Shown here: one piece after another, positions 24,920-39,051 of the stretch
How the letters are laid out: every line of letters begins with the position of its first letter
How positions within the stretch are numbered: the stretch's first letter is position 1
DNA from: Candidatus Thorarchaeota archaeon
GTDB taxonomy: Archaea > Asgardarchaeota > Thorarchaeia > Thorarchaeales > Thorarchaeaceae
Assembly (NCBI GenBank): GCA_048882045.1
Contig: JBHLRZ010000001.1
Location: 1-64,000 of the forward strand
Length of the DNA stretch: 64,000 bases
Direction: 5' to 3'
Position numbers and translations under genes: made by a program
Notes under the pieces: model-generated
The model's database searches: none
Told to the model about the DNA's origin: nothing
The model's input: only the letters and a program-made list of their open reading frames with translations

Positions 24920-25582
24920 ATGAAGCTTGGAGAACTAATTGATGAGGAACACTTTCCATTCTGGGGATTTGCAGGATCCATTGTTGGTCTTGTCTTTATT
25001 GTGACTCCGCAGTTCTTCTATACAGGAACTCTCGGAGAGCCCTTTTCAATGTTCAACCACGCTGTTTCGGAACTTGGAGAGCTGGGAGTGTCAGAACTGG
25101 CTTGGATGTTCAATAGTGGAATGTTCCTAGCGGGGATTCTCTATATTCCTTTCATGGTTGGACTTGGATTGTATCTTGACAACATCATCAGCAAGATAGC
25201 TGCCATCGGGGGAGTGTATTCAGCAGTGTCTATAGTATTGGTCGGAGTATATCCAATGAACTACATGTACCAGCATTCCGTGGCTGCGATTTCATTCTTT
25301 CTCAGTGGCATGGTCATGACTCTCCTTTGGGCAATAGCAATCCTTGTCCAGAAAGAGGTCCGAATTCACAAGGGCATGGCATTAGGCGGATTCATCAACA
25401 TGACTGTGTTTGCACTCTTCCTATTTGGGCCATGGGAGAGTTTGGGAGGACCAAGACCAGAGTTTTCAATGAGACTGACCCTTGAATGGGCGATATTCTG
25501 GGTAATCGTTGGATATTTGCTGGCTCTGACCATCTATGTTTGGAGAAAAGAGAGGAGTCCGGTGTCAGACTCACTACTCTAA
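24920..25582 (+). CDS. DUF998-like membrane protein
   Basis: NHAVSELG...FNSG, GVYPM..H motifs; 5-6 TMs. Confidence 0.7.
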   Translation: MKLGELIDEEHFPFWGFAGSIVGLVFIVTPQFFYTGTLGEPFSMFNHAVSELGELGVSELAWMFNSGMFLAGILYIPFMVGLGLYLDNIISKIAAIGGVYSAVSIVLVGVYPMNYMYQHSVAAISFFLSGMVMTLLWAIAILVQKEVRIHKGMALGGFINMTVFALFLFGPWESLGGPRPEFSMRLTLEWAIFWVIVGYLLALTIYVWRKERSPVSDSLL

Positions 25583-28474
25583 GAATAATGAAACTCGACC
25601 CGGAAGTGCAAAACGTGCCTTGTTTTGTGGGTCATATTCAGTGCTTTCAGGGGCGTGAATGACAATTTCAAGGCCCAACTCTGAACCCATATAGGTTGCT
25701 GAGTCTTGTAACGCAGTCATCTCAGCCTTTGAGCTGAGAGCATAGTCCCAAAGACCATTCTCTTTGGCAATACGATCTACAATGCCCTTGACCTGTTTCC
25801 CATGTTTCCTAAACTCATCATCAGACATCAAATACTTCATTATGTCTCCGACGATAATCGGCAGGTTGGCTTTCCGAATACTGTTCATGGCCTTGAACAT
25901 CCATTCAGGAGCAATGTAGACATGTGCCTTCGTGGGTTTCTTGTCCTTCAGCAGCTTCACAATCTCTCGAATGTCTTTGACCGTGGATTCCACCACCTCT
26001 TGAGCCCTCTCAATTGATGGATCAATCAGATTCTTGTCAGCTATTGGCCAGTCAGCCAGTGAAACATAGCCATCACCATTCATTTTGGACCAGAATTCTT
26101 CACTCGTGTGGGGAATCATAGGTGCAGTCAAACGAACCCATTTTTCGCACACATATCCCATTGTTCCCTCTAGTTCCTCCTTGGGCACATTTCGTTTCTC
26201 ATATTGACTGATTGATCGAATCATTTCAGACAGGACTGTGATTGCGTAGTCACGTATCTTGAAGTTGTCCAGATGGTCGGTACACTCTTGAATAATGGAG
26301 TTCACACGAGATAGGATCCATCGAGTGATAGTGGTTGCGTTCTCCTTCTTAGTAAACACTCTAGGTGTCTTCTTTGAGTACTTCTTCATGATTTCCTTGA
26401 ACTGACGTATACGGTTCCGTACAGTCGGGACGTCTTTCTCCCGCCAGTCCATCAGTGTTGCAGGTTCCGCAGCTGACAATACATAGGTCCTGAAGACATC
26501 CGCTCCATGTGTCTTAGGAATCTCTCCTAGGGGTATGGTATTCCCCTTACTCTTGGACATCTTTCTGCCTTCCATATTCATATGTTCATTCAGACTAATA
26601 CATTGTATCCAGTGCTTCTTTGGGAATATCGCAACATGATGAAAGATTGCGAAGCTCAAGTGATTGGAGATGTGTGACGGGGCAGTATGTCTTTGGTCGT
26701 TGGGATACCAATACAGAAACTCATCACGCATCGACTTCAGGAGATTGGATGAAACGCCTGTTTCTTTCTCCACTTTCTCCACCTTTCCTTTGCCTAGAAA
26801 GACGTGGTCAAAGAAACTCAGTGTCAGTTGTTCTGGTTTCAATTTGTTCTGAGTGATTTTGTGAGAAATTGTGTAGAAAGCCATGTATATAGTGGAGTCA
26901 GACAGAGCTTCTATTATCCAGTCTGGATCAAATGGAAGTGGCGTCCCGATTCCCCTCTTCCTTGCACAAGGCCGCTGGGCTAACCAGTCGAAGGTTGACT
27001 CGAACAAAATGCGGAAGTTTTTCGGGATGATTTCCATGGAGTTTAACGCATCCCATGCTTTGTCTTTCCAACCAGGGCTCTCATAGTCCAAGAACCATTG
27101 TCCAGCTAGAACTGCAATCTGCACATCCGTACCACATTTGCAGATGACTGGTCGTTCATCGGGTTCAAAGAAAACATCACCTCTATTTTGTGACTTTAGC
27201 CATTCAACGACATCATCCTTTACTTCACTGACCTTTTTGCCTGCAAAGGGACCGCAGTTGGCCATCATGGTTCCTTCATAGTACTCGGCCTTGTAGACCT
27301 CTTGGGTTGCCTCTTCAAGCTTCTCACCATCATTTTGAGACTCCACACCGATTTTTTCTACAACATCCTTCGTCAGGAACTCGCTGCCACCCTCAATAGA
27401 TATCATCATGACAATCTCAATATCACGTACATCGTCGGGTGAGATCCCGTATTTTTTCAGTGCCGACGGGTCCTCCCACAGGTCTCTTAGTGCAATGTAG
27501 TCAAAGGGAGCATGCCCAGGTACTGAGTAGACAACACCTGTTGCATTGGTTACATCGACAAAGTCAGCAGGCAGAATCAGCTTGCTACTCTCGTCGTGGA
27601 CTGTTTTGAATGTCTTTCCAATCAACTTGGAGCCTGAAAATGTTTCCAAGACTTCAATCTCTTTCGCTTGTAGCTTCAACTTCTCTGCAGCTATGGATGA
27701 AACAATCCACTTTTCACCATTCACATTAGCTTTGACATACTCTTCCGATGGATTGATCCACAAGTTCGTAATGCCGAACGTGGTTTCAGGTCTCAGTGTT
27801 GCGGCAATCAGAAATCCATCCTCGAAAGGATATTTGATTGTAGTAAACTCTTTGACCTTCGCCGTGGTGCCTTCTAACAAATCATCTTCGCCAACGGGAT
27901 TCCCACAATTTGGACAGTACAGTAATGGATAGGATCCCTTCTTGATGTAACCCAAGTCCATGAACTTCTGATATTGCCAAGTGATGAACTGATTGTAGAT
28001 ATCGTCACCTGTGGTGAAATTGCGACGCCAATCGATGCCATAACCTAGAGCCTTGAAATCCTTCAAAATAACATCTGCGAAGAATTTGACCGTCACCCAC
28101 GGGTCTGTGAACTTCTTCAGCTGAGCCTGAATTTTTTCCTCATCGTCCATATATACACGCATGTCTCGTGTGTACGATTCAATAGCAAATGGATCTCCAT
28201 TCTCTAGTCTATCAACCATTCCTAGAATAGGTGTTCCAGTTATATGGGATGCCATCGGGAACAATACATTATATCCTTGCATTCGCTTGTAACGAGCTAT
28301 TAAATCTCCCAAAGTATACGTTCGGCCATGACCCATGTGCAGTGCACCGTTAGGATATGGATATGGAACGGTAAGAAAGAACTTCTTTCTTTTAGGGTCG
28401 GGGTCAGCCTCAAAGATTCTGTCTTTGCTCCATCGTTTTTGCCATTTCTGCTCGATTTTAGCGAAGTCACTCAT
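25574..28474 (-). CDS. leuS: Leucyl-tRNA synthetase (archaeal/eukaryotic type)
   Basis: PYPYPNGALHMGH (HIGH), ATLRPET, KMSKSKGN, CP1 editing SVPGHAPFDY. Confidence 0.96.
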   Translation of the reverse strand: MSDFAKIEQKWQKRWSKDRIFEADPDPKRKKFFLTVPYPYPNGALHMGHGRTYTLGDLIARYKRMQGYNVLFPMASHITGTPILGMVDRLENGDPFAIESYTRDMRVYMDDEEKIQAQLKKFTDPWVTVKFFADVILKDFKALGYGIDWRRNFTTGDDIYNQFITWQYQKFMDLGYIKKGSYPLLYCPNCGNPVGEDDLLEGTTAKVKEFTTIKYPFEDGFLIAATLRPETTFGITNLWINPSEEYVKANVNGEKWIVSSIAAEKLKLQAKEIEVLETFSGSKLIGKTFKTVHDESSKLILPADFVDVTNATGVVYSVPGHAPFDYIALRDLWEDPSALKKYGISPDDVRDIEIVMMISIEGGSEFLTKDVVEKIGVESQNDGEKLEEATQEVYKAEYYEGTMMANCGPFAGKKVSEVKDDVVEWLKSQNRGDVFFEPDERPVICKCGTDVQIAVLAGQWFLDYESPGWKDKAWDALNSMEIIPKNFRILFESTFDWLAQRPCARKRGIGTPLPFDPDWIIEALSDSTIYMAFYTISHKITQNKLKPEQLTLSFFDHVFLGKGKVEKVEKETGVSSNLLKSMRDEFLYWYPNDQRHTAPSHISNHLSFAIFHHVAIFPKKHWIQCISLNEHMNMEGRKMSKSKGNTIPLGEIPKTHGADVFRTYVLSAAEPATLMDWREKDVPTVRNRIRQFKEIMKKYSKKTPRVFTKKENATTITRWILSRVNSIIQECTDHLDNFKIRDYAITVLSEMIRSISQYEKRNVPKEELEGTMGYVCEKWVRLTAPMIPHTSEEFWSKMNGDGYVSLADWPIADKNLIDPSIERAQEVVESTVKDIREIVKLLKDKKPTKAHVYIAPEWMFKAMNSIRKANLPIIVGDIMKYLMSDDEFRKHGKQVKGIVDRIAKENGLWDYALSSKAEMTALQDSATYMGSELGLEIVIHAPESTEYDPQNKARFALPGRVSLFLE

Positions 28475-29384: not shown

Positions 29385-30326
29385 ATGGTAAAGGCTGTGG
29401 TTGATGCCGTAGACATTGATCCTAAGACAGGGACAACATTGGGCTACTATACATTCGGTGGGGAGCGGCCCAATATCATGATCGTTGCTGCATTTGATGG
29501 ACGGTCTGCCACAGATGTTTATGCGAGCTACCTCATTATGAAACATCTTGAGGGACTCGAACGGATTGATGGTTCTGTCACTTTCTTACCTGTGGCAAAT
29601 CCACTTGCCTTCAGACTCGGGGCTCGGGTGTCTGCACTCGATTCGAAGGACCTAGACACAGTCTTTCCTGGGAACGAATACGGAACCGTGACAGAGAGGA
29701 CTGCGTGGGAAATCTGGCGTCGAGCATCTACTTCAGACTATGTGATCCAGCTTCGAACAGGATGGCAGAACTGTACCAGCCACATCGTTGCAATGCACAG
29801 GGATTACATCCATGTCAGAAACTTGGCTTCACAGATTGCTCTTCCGTTTGCTGCTCAATCTGCAGGATTACGTGGCGCACTCACTACTGAAGCAGCACAC
29901 GAAGGCATCCCGGCAGTCTCAATAGAGATGCGAGGGGACACAGACCAAGTCGACTCACAAGCAGCAGTCGAAGTCAAAGAGGCTCTCCTGAATCTGATGA
30001 GAATAAAGGACATGATACCTGGAGAGAAGATTGAGGCATCCAACAAGCTTGTTGGGAGGTTACAGCAAATCAATGTTGACACAGAGGGTTTCTTCATCCC
30101 CAAGGTCAATCTCGGGGAGTATGTGAAGAATGGAGACGTCATAGGCCAAGTGCAAGACAAGACAGAGGTCGTTTCACAGTTTGATGGAGCTATGATCTCC
30201 CTGAGCCGCATCAACTATGTCTTCGAGGGAGATTCAGTAGCACGAATAGCATCCCCACTAGGGGACCATTGGGTTTCCAAAGAGGATGAAAAGGAAGATG
30301 ACGCACCAAAAAGAAGAAAGTGGTAG
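29385..30326 (+). CDS. Succinylglutamate desuccinylase/aspartoacylase (M14-like) family protein, Zn ligands missing
   Basis: FLPVANPLAF, DLDTVFPG, GIPAVSIE, C-terminal lipoyl-like domain; HxxE replaced by DGRS. Confidence 0.75.
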   Translation: MVKAVVDAVDIDPKTGTTLGYYTFGGERPNIMIVAAFDGRSATDVYASYLIMKHLEGLERIDGSVTFLPVANPLAFRLGARVSALDSKDLDTVFPGNEYGTVTERTAWEIWRRASTSDYVIQLRTGWQNCTSHIVAMHRDYIHVRNLASQIALPFAAQSAGLRGALTTEAAHEGIPAVSIEMRGDTDQVDSQAAVEVKEALLNLMRIKDMIPGEKIEASNKLVGRLQQINVDTEGFFIPKVNLGEYVKNGDVIGQVQDKTEVVSQFDGAMISLSRINYVFEGDSVARIASPLGDHWVSKEDEKEDDAPKRRKW

Positions 30327-33175: not shown

Positions 33176-34120
33176 ATGGCTAGACCAGTGCGTGCCAACC
33201 AGCAGCATCAGAAGGGCTTGGCAGTCTGTTCTGTTTGCGGTGGCAGTGATTTTTATGAAGACTTGACACGCGGCGAACACATTTGCACTTCATGCGGATG
33301 TGTATTGAACGAACGACTCCTAGACACAGGACCAGAGTGGAGGGCTTTCACAGCTGAAGAGAGAAATGCTAGAGCCAGAACTGGTTCTCCTATGACATTG
33401 ACAATGGCGGACAAAGGTCTTGCCACTACAATTGGCTGGAGCGATAGAGATGCGAATGGTCGTGCGATTGCTGCAAGCAGTCGTGCTGCGATCTACCGAA
33501 TGAGGAAATGGCAGATCAGAACATTAGTGCACAGCTCCCAGCACAGGAACCTCAGCATTGCTATGAGTGAGATGGACAGATTGACATCCCAACTTGGTGT
33601 CCCACATGAAACCAAGGAAACCTCAGCACTCATCTATCGAAAGGCTCTATCAAGGCGCCTCGTCAGAGGTAGGAGCATCGAGGGCATGGTGGCTGCAACC
33701 ATCTATCTATCATGCCGAATCCACAAGATTCCACGACAACTCGATGAGATAGTCACAGAGGCAAGGGTCAACAGGAAAGAGCTTGGACAGTGTGTCCGAC
33801 TCATTCTCCGCAATGTTGACGTCAAGGTGCCAATTCCTTCAGCAAACGACCTTATGCCAAGGATCTCTGCAGACCTTGGACTTGATGGAAAGACTGTCCA
33901 GACCGCGATGAACATCATCAACGATGCTAGAGAGAGAGGCATCACAGCTGGTAAAGATCCAGGTGGTCTTGCAGCCGCAGCCCTCTACATCGCAGGCATC
34001 ATCGAGGACGATAGAAGGACTCAGAGAGAGATTGCTGAGGCTTCTAATGTTACAGAAGTGACTGTTCGAAACAGGTATAAAGACCTGGCAAACAGCCTTC
34101 AGATTACAATCAAACCATAG
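33176..34120 (+). CDS. tfb: Transcription initiation factor IIB (TFB)
   Basis: Zn ribbon CSVC..CTSC, GPEWRAF B-reader, two cyclin repeats, TEVTVRNRYK. Confidence 0.95.
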   Translation: MARPVRANQQHQKGLAVCSVCGGSDFYEDLTRGEHICTSCGCVLNERLLDTGPEWRAFTAEERNARARTGSPMTLTMADKGLATTIGWSDRDANGRAIAASSRAAIYRMRKWQIRTLVHSSQHRNLSIAMSEMDRLTSQLGVPHETKETSALIYRKALSRRLVRGRSIEGMVAATIYLSCRIHKIPRQLDEIVTEARVNRKELGQCVRLILRNVDVKVPIPSANDLMPRISADLGLDGKTVQTAMNIINDARERGITAGKDPGGLAAAALYIAGIIEDDRRTQREIAEASNVTEVTVRNRYKDLANSLQITIKP

Positions 34121-34158
34121 TGGTTGGGATTTCTCCCAACTACTCCTTTCCTATTTTT
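34119..34158 (+). terminator. Hairpin plus pyrimidine/T tract after tfb
   Basis: agtggttggga/tcccaactact stem followed by cctttcctattttt. Confidence 0.55.
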
Positions 34159-34299
34159 CCATTAGATTCATTTGTGTAGAAAACTGACATCCTTAGGATT
34201 CAAATGAACAAGCTCATTCTCGCACTCTGTGGTTTCCCTATAGAGAGTGTGAGTGACATACTTCTCGATAGATTGAGAGAGTTATTTTGAGGAGATTTA

Positions 34300-34563
34300 A
34301 TGACAGACCTGTATCTAGAAGACTATGGGTCCAAAGAAAAGGAAGATATCTGTTGGCAAACAATAGGTGTTCTCTGTGTGGTCATAATTGGGTTTGTCTT
34401 GTTCTATATGGTCTATACATCACTCTGGGAGCTGATGCTTCCAGCAATTTCAGATCGTGGTCTTGAACTAACAAGTCTAGGATTGATTTTTGGAGTAATA
34501 TTAGTAGTCTATATTGTCAGAAGCAAGTCACTAGAGAAAAGGAAGATAATGGCGGCTTCCTAA
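34300..34563 (+). CDS. Small 2-TM membrane protein
   Basis: GAGGAG SD, two hydrophobic segments; last codons overlap the 3' end of the tRNA-Sec antisense. Confidence 0.6.
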   Translation: MTDLYLEDYGSKEKEDICWQTIGVLCVVIIGFVLFYMVYTSLWELMLPAISDRGLELTSLGLIFGVILVVYIVRSKSLEKRKIMAAS

Positions 34564-34640
34564 GAGAATCGAACTCTCAACGCTTGCACCTTCACGGGTT
34601 TGAAGTCCGTGGGACCAGACCACCGTTCCTGTAGAAGGCC
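34550..34640 (-). tRNA. selC: tRNA-Sec (anticodon UCA), 9/4 fold, probably degenerating
   Basis: GGCCTTCTA-CA-GGAACGG TGGT CTGGTCC-CACGGA CTTCAAA CCCGTG-AAGGT GCAA GCGTT-G-AGAG TTCGATT CTCT-TAGGAAGCC-GCCA: 9-bp acceptor, 7-bp D stem with 4-nt loop, long variable arm, 4-bp T stem, G discriminator, encoded CCA. Confidence 0.92.
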
Positions 34641-34666
34641 AGGACTATCTGTGAAAGGGAACTAAT

Positions 34667-35314
34667 CTAAATGTAACGACCAATAATGTTCTGAGTTTCC
34701 CGTTTCCATTCTATACTCTTCTTAGCGAGTTCAGAAGCGATATTTCCAGGCATTGTTTCATCACGAGGAAGTGATTCGATTTTCGATAGCCATGCTGCAG
34801 TTGTGAGTGTGGTTGACGGGATACTCTCCTCACCCTCGGTTGCTTTGATTATCATCTCCCTCCCATGTGCCACCTGAACATAGACATCGTTCACAGGGGC
34901 TTTAGCGAGAATTTCTTTGATAACTCTGTCCCAACAGGTCTTTGCAACCAGTGCTTTCTTGAGTTTGGATCTGTCATTCTCAGATAATGCCTGATACTTT
35001 GAGAGTGTAGCATCCATTGCTTGGATGTGATCATCAACATAGACTGAGAGTGCGACCTCATCATGTCCCATTGCTGTTAGTTCAACAGCAGCCTGTGCTT
35101 TTGTCACTTGAATCGCAGCATGTGCTTCTTCACCTGCAATTCTGAGGGAAAACTTTGCAGACCCGTGGAAATCCTGACTCTCTGCCTCACTATGTTCTTC
35201 TAAAATCAGATTGGGTTTGGATGCAACAACATACCAAGCCAGTCTGAAAACAATGTCAGGATCAACGCTGCTGTAGTTGAGTTTGCGAGAGACCTCGGTC
35301 ATTTCTTCATTCAT
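34667..35314 (-). CDS. Hypothetical protein inside the Sec locus
   Basis: Intact 215-aa ORF, GGGAGGG SD; no recognised motif. Confidence 0.7.
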   Translation of the reverse strand: MNEEMTEVSRKLNYSSVDPDIVFRLAWYVVASKPNLILEEHSEAESQDFHGSAKFSLRIAGEEAHAAIQVTKAQAAVELTAMGHDEVALSVYVDDHIQAMDATLSKYQALSENDRSKLKKALVAKTCWDRVIKEILAKAPVNDVYVQVAHGREMIIKATEGEESIPSTTLTTAAWLSKIESLPRDETMPGNIASELAKKSIEWKRETQNIIGRYI

Positions 35315-35346
35315 TCGACTTGCCCTCCCTCAAGGGTTCCCCTAGT

Positions 35347-35430
35347 CTACTTACTGGCCTCCTTATAGAGTTTAGTTGTGGCTGTCTCCACATCGTTTTT
35401 TGAGGCGCCAATGGCTGCATTCATAACAAT
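35347..35430 (-). pseudogene. spcS: C-terminal remnant of O-phosphoseryl-tRNA(Sec) selenium transferase (SepSecS) fused to the selB fragment
   Basis: IVMNAAIGASKNDVETATTKLYKEASK* resembles the SepSecS C-terminal (Y)IVMNAAIG-x4-D-[VI]-x5-KL motif as recalled from methanococcal/eukaryotic enzymes; not SelB-like. Confidence 0.7.
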
Positions 35431-35740
35431 GTGTTCTCCAGTTTGGACCATTGGACCTTCATCTGCTGCAATAACAATGATTGCTCCATCAATAATGTTG
35501 GCACCAGCAACGACACTCCTGATAAGATCAGCGTGTCCTGGAGCGTCAACTAGAGTGACTGGAATCCGTCAAGTTCCAAAATTGTAAAGCCAAGATAGAT
35601 GGTAATTCCCCGTTTCTTGGCTTGAGGGTGTTTGTCCAGTCCAGCGGTTGAAACTTTCTTGCGCATTGCTTTTGCTAAGGCGTTTTACCATGGTCAATGT
35701 GACTCATGAGCCCAACATGCACTGGAACGAGACTACCCAT
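35425..35740 (-). pseudogene. selB: Selenocysteine-specific elongation factor SelB/eEFSec, N-terminal G-domain fragment with two frameshifts
   Basis: Reconstructed: MGSLVPVHVGLMSHIDHGKT/ALAKAMRKKVSTAGLDKHPQAKKRGITIYLGFTILELDGF/VTLVDAPGHADLIRSVVAGANIIDGAIIVIAADEGPMVQTGEHIV; ends before NKxD. Confidence 0.9.
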
Positions 35741-35825
35741 TTCTGAACTTCAAATGTGGCTGGTGGAATTGAACATAAAACCAGTGTCAGAGGACTTTAT
35801 TGGGACGATTGCTGAATCAAAGGCT

Positions 35826-36251
35826 ATGGTATCACGGTCGTTAGAGAAGATGTTGCTTATTGCAATAGGTCTCTCGACAGCAGTCATTATTGGTGTTCCA
35901 GTCTTGTTGTATGCTATTGAAACGATAAACACGACCACTCAGTTGCAGGAAGCACAATTGGCAGCAGAACTGATTCATAATGCCACAAACACAGTAGATA
36001 CTGGAATCTCCAATTCAACTGCAATCACCATTTGGATCCCCAGAGGAGCGGTTGTATCAGCTGTGGGGAACACTCTTACAGTATCTTTCGCAGAAATAAC
36101 AGAATCATGGACTGAAACATACAATCATGAAATATCAGTTGATGACCCTCCGTTTAATCCTGAAGGCCAATTACTCTATACGATAGAAGTTGTCATGATT
36201 GGAGATGTCATTCACATCGCCTTTGACGCAGTCCCAACATACCGTACTTGA
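35826..36251 (+). CDS. Archaeal pilin-like / class III signal peptide protein
   Basis: MVSR|SLE followed by a hydrophobic helix, then a small beta-rich domain with N-x-T sites. Confidence 0.5.
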   Translation: MVSRSLEKMLLIAIGLSTAVIIGVPVLLYAIETINTTTQLQEAQLAAELIHNATNTVDTGISNSTAITIWIPRGAVVSAVGNTLTVSFAEITESWTETYNHEISVDDPPFNPEGQLLYTIEVVMIGDVIHIAFDAVPTYRT

Positions 36252-38058: not shown

Positions 38059-39051
38059 TCAAGAGTTTGCATTCTTTGGAGTTATTACACCGCCCTTGGA
38101 GAAATCGAATAAGACTCTCTCATCATCTCCCAGTCGGAGTCTTACTGTCTTGGAATCATCAACTAATCCTATCACTGTTGATGTCAATTCATGTTTGGAA
38201 ACAATATCTTGGAGTTGACTCAGGTCATCTCTTTGTGTCGCTACGAGAAAACCAAGAGATATGTACATCCGAATCCAATCTTCTAAGTCGATATCAAGTG
38301 GTTTTGAGGAGTCGATTACATCGAGATCGATTGTTCCACCTCTGCCCGAGTATTCAAGCATCATCGCAGCAGTACCTATGACTCCTGCTACAGACACGTC
38401 CTTAGAGGCTGTGAGTATTTGTTCACTGGCAAGAGTATTCATGACAGAGAGTCTTTTGACCACTTCATCCGAAGTTCTATTCGTCACTGAGTCCCAACCA
38501 AGTGTGTAACTTTCTCCTCTTTGTCCTACTGTGTCGAAAATGAATACGAGCAAGTCATCAACTTTGGCACCGCCTGCTGTGAGTAGATGGTTTACTTTCA
38601 CGGTTCCAGTTGTAGATCCAACAACATATGTTGAACTAGATGCAGGATTCGTGTGGCCTCGTACAATCGGAACACGGAATGTATGTGATCCTGCAATCAG
38701 TCCATCAAGAAGGGCTTCACCTATCTCTGGGTCAGAATACGAGAGGGCAACAGCAAAAGACGTGGGTGTACCTCCAGCAGCATAGATATCCATCACATTG
38801 GCAAGTACAGCATTGAATCCAGCTGCTCGTGGATGATTTAGACACAGGTCCTCAACTATTGCGTCTGTTGTGAGCAAAACCGAGTCATCAGACCCGGTGT
38901 CAATTACTGCTGAATCTTCCCCTAATCCGTGAGGTGTATTTCCATTGAAGGATTCTAAACGTAGTTTGTCAATGATTGAGGGAAGAACGAACTTGCGAGA
39001 GATGCCATCAAAACTCACGAGGAGTTTGACTATCTCATCAAGACGGCTCAA
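38059..39051 (-). CDS. AIR synthase/PurM-like superfamily protein (methanogenesis marker 2/sll0787-like)
   Basis: GEDSAVI, LTTDAI, ANVMDIYAAGGTP, GHT, SKDVSVAG. Confidence 0.78.
   Translation of the reverse strand: MSRLDEIVKLLVSFDGISRKFVLPSIIDKLRLESFNGNTPHGLGEDSAVIDTGSDDSVLLTTDAIVEDLCLNHPRAAGFNAVLANVMDIYAAGGTPTSFAVALSYSDPEIGEALLDGLIAGSHTFRVPIVRGHTNPASSSTYVVGSTTGTVKVNHLLTAGGAKVDDLLVFIFDTVGQRGESYTLGWDSVTNRTSDEVVKRLSVMNTLASEQILTASKDVSVAGVIGTAAMMLEYSGRGGTIDLDVIDSSKPLDIDLEDWIRMYISLGFLVATQRDDLSQLQDIVSKHELTSTVIGLVDDSKTVRLRLGDDERVLFDFSKGGVITPKNANS

Follow-up and report, generated by a model that had tools for sequence, protein, structure and literature searches.

Did this archaeon lose the genetic system for selenocysteine (Sec), and if so by what steps and how recently? 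The question is raised by a locus in a 64,000-nucleotide stretch of DNA (the window: positions 1 to 64,000 of contig JBHLRZ010000001.1) from the Candidatus Thorarchaeota metagenome-assembled genome (MAG) that we call G000 (3.63 Mb, 93 contigs, 93.4% complete, 2.8% contamination). On its minus strand, 35740 to 34551, lie remnants of selB and of the SepSecS gene spcS, the whole gene Sel_Asgard and a tRNA-Sec. A first-pass annotation had read this locus as a Sec gene cluster that was inactivated by deletion and caught while decaying. Comparison with relatives places that reading at a probability of about 0.9: the window holds the orthologous Sec locus of a Thorarchaeota species that recently gave up Sec.

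Loss of Sec is familiar from bacteria, fungi, plants and insects, and the Asgard Sec machinery (SelB/EFSec, SepSecS, PSTK, SelD and tRNA-Sec) was reportedly catalogued by Mariotti and colleagues in 2016. G000 was placed in the genus of SMTZ1-45 and AB_25. We compared it with 27 congeners (a genus set of 28 genomes, G000 included) and surveyed the 65 Thorarchaeota loci that carry Sel_Asgard.

Remains of the cluster in the window

Most of the 65 loci hold an intact cluster, in which selB, spcS, Sel_Asgard and tRNA-Sec follow one another on one strand and a convergent pstK (249 aa) faces them. An opposite-strand gene for a small membrane protein precedes selB, and TFB lies beyond pstK. Apart from the added pstK, this is exactly the selB-...-spcS-orf-selC order that had been proposed as ancestral. 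The stubs in G000 occupy the orthologous site, flanked by the neighbours that it has in more than 50 relatives (Table 1).

Table 1. Features of the collapsed Sec locus, in window coordinates.
Feature	Position	Strand	Description	Basis
PSTK relic	34204..34290	plus	codons 1-12 joined in frame to the final ~16 codons, original TGA stop included	tblastn, blastn, translation
Predicted membrane-protein open reading frame (ORF), 87 aa	34300..34563	plus	between PSTK relic and tRNA; not a Sec gene	
tRNA-Sec(UCA) relic	34551..34640	minus	9/4 fold, encoded CCA	Rfam RF01852, cloverleaf check
Sel_Asgard, 215 aa, intact	34667..35314	minus	"putative selenocysteine system protein"	NCBIfam NF045535
Spacer, SepSecS stop to Sel_Asgard start	35315..35349	minus	holds Shine-Dalgarno-like GAGGGAGG; SepSecS stop codon at 35347-35349	alignment
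SepSecS C-terminal tail	35350..35433	minus	codons ~412-439	tblastn and nucleotide alignment including four collapsed loci
Deletion junction	35425..35433	minus	selB codon ~108 to SepSecS codon ~413, in frame, ATTGT microhomology	blastn and alignments
selB stub	35428..35740	minus	codons 1 to ~108 of a 464-codon gene, GTPase domain; ATG start at 35740	three-frame translations, TIGR00475, codon alignments

The selB stub retains a translational-GTPase G1 motif and has to be read in three frames. Alignment to five relatives located two 1-nt deletions, at 35682/35681 and 35564/35563, together with changes at otherwise invariant residues (GHIDHGKT, for example, has become SHIDHGKT). SelB of the relatives is 464 aa long and scores 290 bits against TIGR00475. 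A full-length SelB would show domains I-IV in one frame at 242 bits or more, and the best segment of the stub reached 53.7 bits. The gene is thus frameshifted and truncated, as first described.

DNA alignment against G002, G004, G022 and G023, with breakpoints from blastn against G002, G004 and G023, traces the truncation to a single deletion of ~2.3 kb that joins selB nucleotide ~318 to SepSecS codon ~412 at a shared ATTGT. Across this junction the stub reads in frame into the SepSecS end, HIVMNAAIGASKNDVETATTKLYKEASK, and its stop. What had been called a SepSecS-like C-terminal scar is indeed the last 27-28 codons of that gene, with 79-89% identity by tblastn to residues 412-439 of the relatives' SepSecS (439 aa, 458 bits to TIGR03531). 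Nothing else of SepSecS is left: the catalytic core (PF05889 / TIGR03531) is missing, and the whole G000 genome has no PF05889 match.

The tRNA-Sec relic keeps the 9/4 architecture (acceptor stem of 9 bp, T stem of 4 bp), the UCA anticodon and a long, GCAA-capped variable arm. It scored 46.0 bits (E 2.6e-7) against Rfam RF01852, under the gathering threshold of 47; the tRNA-Sec of relatives with intact loci scored 52-64 bits, and 23 of the 27 congeners have one at 55-61 bits. The damage to its arms noted in the first-pass annotation amounts to four mismatches among 31 stem pairs: C4.A84 in the acceptor stem (plus-strand positions 34637/34557), A15.G26 in the D stem (34626/34615), A35.C43 in the anticodon stem (34606/34598) and G51.G60 in the variable stem (34590/34581). 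Nineteen relatives with intact loci have 0-2 mismatches each, and 14 of them none; the cloverleaf energy is -31.2 kcal/mol in the relic versus about -40 in relatives. The relic differs at 8 of 90 positions from the tRNA-Sec of G004, which equals the genus consensus, and four of its substitutions occur in none of 20 relatives, a lineage-unique change of ~4%. No second tRNA-Sec was found in the G000 genome, where the window copy is the sole tRNA-Sec-like match. ARAGORN reported no tRNA here, a blank that we set aside given the Rfam detection.

Two further lesions had escaped the first-pass annotation: a PSTK relic on the plus strand and a deletion of selD. The PSTK relic, 28 codons long, reads MNKLILALCGFP joined to IESVSDILLDRLRELF and a stop. 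It lacks the Walker A P-loop, and ~0.7 kb is gone from the pstK interior relative to the genes for the 249-257-aa PSTK of relatives. Those proteins match TIGR03574 best (150 bits) and also Pfam KTI12; no match to PSTK was found anywhere in G000.

selD and the selenoprotein genes

In relatives, selD lies between a gene for a 246-aa protein and an RtcB-like gene. These neighbours are ~1.37 kb apart there and 324 bp apart in G000, where selD has been deleted at the syntenic site on another contig (G000:C9:7326-7650; locus L193:1827-2151). The gap keeps the upstream (5') flank, the last six codons and a hairpin of the 3' untranslated region. This hairpin, GAGGACUGCUGC-UGCAA-GCAGCUGGUCUCC, matches the putative Sec insertion sequence (SECIS) hairpin 3' of the Sec-containing selD in G002 and is a probable SECIS fossil. 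We looked for SelD as a TIGR00476 match of at least 125 bits with the N-terminal G-(U/C)-x-x-K motif; the best G000 match had 87 bits and was rejected as a PurM-like paralogue, which relatives carry beside their real SelD. SelD is present in 24 of the 28 genus genomes, mostly with one in-frame TGA. At the selD loci of G001, G003 and G013 (L057-L059), a 743-750-aa open frame contains a full SelD domain (391-403 bits) and no in-frame TGA; SelD of these genomes is a fused, Cys-type or otherwise different form.

The possibility that intact machinery lies elsewhere in the genome had been raised together with the original reading. Whole-genome searches of the 93.4%-complete G000 found no intact SelB, SepSecS, PSTK or SelD; no SelB rose above cut-off, the best matches being aEF1-alpha and aIF2-gamma.

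The main selenoproteins of Thorarchaeia are SelD and a piece of the FrhA/VhuU hydrogenase (PMC11227280). Both of the known selenoprotein genes of the genus, for Sec-containing SelD and for the VhuU-like peptide of the [NiFeSe] hydrogenase, are absent from G000. The hydrogenase occurs in 26 of the 28 genus genomes, with the separate peptide ...RCYDC[U]LSCGAH..., and is missing from G000 and G002. tblastn detected no VhuA, hydrogenase small subunit or VhuU in G000, and on contig C18 the bracketed syntenic position, which in G004 carries the Hdr-Mvh operon, is taken up by two small membrane-protein genes. No in-frame TGA was found in the FlpD/HdrA or AhpC-TSA genes of the genus, including the Sec-positive relatives examined per family.

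Contig C18 also carries three partial copies of a 58-83-nt element (G000:C18:26391-26459, 28192-28249 and 29821-29852; locus L204) with 91-97% identity to the sequence that flanks the Sec-containing vhuU of G004 on its 3' side. Full-length copies stand beside vhuA/vhuU in most congeners; the G000 copies sit after the stops of two tandem membrane-protein paralogues of 559 and 598 aa. The element, which also trails these unrelated tandem genes, may represent either a relic SECIS or a shared terminator.

Recurrent collapse and the retained Sel_Asgard gene

The locus had been presented as a rare fossil, a description that does not hold: the loss recurs, with independently collapsed loci in four or five other Thorarchaeota species at the least. 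G020 (bin66) lacks selB and pstK; its SepSecS tail is frameshifted and longer, from residue ~366-383, its tRNA-Sec has five mismatches, and of selD only the last 27 codons are left. G012 (E44_bin77) lacks selB, tRNA-Sec, pstK and selD, and its SepSecS tail is more decayed. G029, from another genus, has the same layout, with neither SelD nor SepSecS, and its congener G077 has both; G089 carries Sel_Asgard and likewise has no SelD and no SepSecS. In G088 (CSMAG_1051), selB 1-101 is fused to SepSecS 318-439 and PSTK is reduced to residues 1-57, and a SelD(TGA) is still there. The G088 locus (L160, 4294-6781) is a second collapse "in progress", in which blastn found no tRNA-Sec. Since the breakpoints differ in every collapsed species, the deletions are independent. 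An ancestral deletion common to G000 and either G020 or G012 was rejected, given that neither locus shows matching breakpoints. Both trees group G020 with Sec-positive species.

Synonymous differences between these species are saturated (pS 0.6-0.85), and the proportion of non-synonymous differences (pN) of the frame-corrected selB stub to relatives is 0.095-0.13, versus 0.06-0.12 for intact G004, an excess of ~0.03. This small excess, together with the unique change in the tRNA, makes the inactivation young relative to the species divergence, and to speak of a loss caught in progress is fair.

Amid this decay one gene stands whole. The first-pass annotation was right that it is intact, but it is not unknown: its product belongs to NF045535, the Sel_Asgard family, at 211.9 bits over residues 17-211 (cut-off at least 132 bits), as does that of the ~217-aa gene between spcS and tRNA-Sec in relatives (212 bits). 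It keeps 48 of 48 invariant residues, and its pN/pS, about 0.17-0.19, does not exceed that of intact-locus pairs. Sel_Asgard is a full open frame in all collapsed loci, and it is intact and conserved despite the lost Sec system in G000, G012, G020, G029 and G089. Its retention in Sec-negative genomes speaks against a role exclusive to Sec; the link to Sec that the family name implies is supported by gene neighbourhood only. An AF2 model (pLDDT 89.8) predicts an alpha+beta domain at the N terminus and a four-helix bundle at the C terminus. Foldseek against the PDB returned nothing at E <= 0.001, and matches in the ESM Atlas had TM scores of at most 0.48, with no decisive structural relative. 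The best VIA-align match, the Vps28 C-terminal four-helix bundle (Z 11.4), was discarded as lying within the range common for helical bundles.

The SepSecS tail contains a conserved TATA-like CTCTATAAGG. The final ~30 nt of the SepSecS gene (AAACTCTATAAGGAGG...) are kept, as is GAGGGAGG, at the nucleotide level in intact and collapsed loci alike, across genera, the SepSecS-end motif ~50 nt and GAGGGAGG ~10 nt upstream of the Sel_Asgard start. The SepSecS-end nucleotides are conserved even where the remaining SepSecS is gone or decayed. We infer that this motif is the TATA box and GAGGGAGG the ribosome-binding site of Sel_Asgard; the scar probably persists since it carries the Sel_Asgard promoter, that is, because of selection on the neighbouring gene.

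Proposed course of the loss and alternatives

On the preferred reading, one ~2.3-kb microhomology-mediated deletion took the stretch from selB codon ~109 to SepSecS codon ~412, another nearly all of pstK and a third, on the other contig, selD. Afterwards the selB stub gained its two 1-nt deletions and tRNA-Sec its pair-breaking substitutions. Once the hydrogenase client was gone, the machinery would have served only SelD and SelD only the machinery; selection would then have lapsed, and any deletion in the compact cluster would have been neutral. Sel_Asgard would have been retained by selection for a Sec-independent role. G002, with full machinery and SelD(U) and no hydrogenase, suggests a stage at which Sec serves only its own synthesis, and the order client first, machinery later is plausible for G000.

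A broader proposal has, in our estimate, an even chance of being right: that Sel_Asgard is no dedicated Sec factor, being under purifying selection in at least five Sec-lacking Thorarchaeota species (four of them by demonstrably different deletions); that promoter selection preserves the SepSecS scar; and that the Sec system tends to collapse once it is self-referential, with SelD the last selenoprotein, as G002 suggests.

The lesions might instead be an artefact of assembly or binning, the true locus being intact and the collapsed version a mis-join or chimera. MAGs can be mis-assembled, and Sec-positive Thorarchaeota relatives share the samples; one X3 contig has 776 extra bases at pstK, and minority tRNA variants occur at 34606 and 34610. 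The window stretch is present in eight listed runs from four studies, of which four runs from two studies were compared with the window. A 4232-nt contig of the second study and contigs of two other samples match 34560-35900 with 0 differences and 0 gaps, a stretch that includes the tRNA, Sel_Asgard, the junction and both frameshifts; further contigs span 34100-34587 with one single-nucleotide polymorphism. Variant contigs in the same samples that carry pstK or intact tRNA pairs are at least 6% divergent and are those of co-occurring Sec-positive species; the PSTK-bearing contig, ~6% divergent, hence belongs to another species. With the lesions carried exactly by independent Logan contigs (two studies, four samples), clean deletions with conserved flanks at three separate loci and a like pattern in assemblies of other species, an assembly error, against which the first-pass annotation had itself cautioned, is extremely improbable. 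It is also very improbable that the locus is a decaying redundant duplicate and that a working Sec system sits in the unassembled 7%. Completeness is 93.4% and some relatives have two selD genes (PMC11227280), but the stubs lie at the orthologous site rather than a second one, selD is deleted at its own syntenic site, and SelB, SepSecS, PSTK, SelD, tRNA-Sec and VhuU would all need to fall in the missing fraction.

The loss could also be old and shared with the sister G012, G000 being merely slower to decay and not "in progress". The tree of locus genes and RtcB identity (91-92%) leave G000, G004 and G012 as an unresolved trio, and G012, too, lacks selB, spcS, pstK, tRNA-Sec and selD. The selB-spcS and selD breakpoints nevertheless differ, and each of the two genomes keeps SepSecS or selD-flank sequence that the other has lost. 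The ~3% non-synonymous excess of the G000 stub, despite saturated synonymous sites, is a poor fit to neutral decay since a deep split, and the young stub argues against an initial inactivation shared with G012; the G012 locus contig is, moreover, only 3.2 kb long, in a bin with 9% contamination. We consider an old, shared loss unlikely.

Some observations do weigh against a recent loss of Sec in G000 or the course proposed for it. The tRNA-Sec relic, 1 bit below the Rfam threshold, could still fold and be transcribed. In a MAG that is 93% complete with 2.8% contamination, the hydrogenase operon and further selenoprotein families may have gone undetected, and the selenoprotein check was confined to the five families known in Asgard archaea. 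Gene trees conflict on whether G002 or G004 is closer to G000, which bears on the client-first order, and sequence conservation is the whole basis for the promoter role of the SepSecS tail.

Neighbouring genes and comparison with known systems

The 87-aa ORF overlaps the 3' end of tRNA-Sec by 13 nt; its sole homologue by tblastn lies at the same place in G004 (42% identity over 90 aa, E 2e-18). At 38059-39051 on the minus strand the window encodes a 330-aa PurM/AIR-synthase-like protein that all relatives conserve. It matches TIGR03267 ("methanogenesis marker 2") best, with 234 bits (below cut-off); at 39 bits to the selD model it is not SelD. LeuRS of G000 (25574-28474, minus strand) shares 86% identity with its G002 counterpart, 75-80% with those in members of another genus and only 68% with those in most congeners. 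For RtcB and the Sec-locus genes the relation is reversed, which suggests that leuS was transferred or recombined within the family; the LeuRS tree, which places G000 with G002 and the other genus, was for the same disagreement not used as a species tree.

The locus gives a base-level record of an archaeon dropping a genetic-code expansion, in which a few microhomology deletions in a compact cluster were followed by point decay of the tRNA. It shows repeated loss within one Asgard family and fixes the ancestral Thorarchaeota Sec gene order, and the collapsed loci are natural "knock-outs" for Sel_Asgard function. For annotation it advises caution: a near-threshold tRNA-Sec or a Sel_Asgard match is no proof of Sec use. 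Sel_Asgard of G000 itself is a member of NF045535, a 215-aa protein at 212 bits; in relatives the gene stands between spcS and tRNA-Sec.

According to Huang et al. 2024, who described the Asgard Sec machinery, 77.4% of Thorarchaeia use Sec, ~23% lack it and some lineages "might have lost" it (PMC11227280). The G000 stubs are orthologous to that machinery, and the tRNA has the archaeal 9/4 fold, UCA anticodon and long variable arm; the Sec-containing SelD and VhuU/FrhA-type hydrogenase peptide of the relatives are as reported for Thorarchaeia. Unlike in those systems, none of the Sec components in the window (selB, SepSecS, PSTK, tRNA-Sec) appears functional, judging from their sequences. Asgard catalogues score Sec as present or absent, without relics, breakpoints or cluster order, and pseudogene relics are described neither in Huang et al. 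2024 (PMC11227280) nor in a 2026 review (PMC13188914).

Relics of Sec loss are known from other lineages: insects underwent independent selenoprotein extinctions with relic machinery (Chapple and Guigo 2008, PMC2500217), and Helicobacter pylori has partial Sec-gene remnants (PMC4607533). G000 is a clean, well-resolved yet not unique case of this known type of gene loss, and what is new here, both points modest, is that Sel_Asgard is retained independently of Sec and that the collapse is recurrent and independent. As in insects and H. pylori, a small selenoproteome comes first, followed by relaxed selection and recurrent losses that leave behind tRNA-Sec or single machinery genes. The case of G000 differs in being archaeal, in that the genes are all clustered and one or two deletions disable the system, and in that intact sister loci allow each relic and breakpoint to be interpreted.

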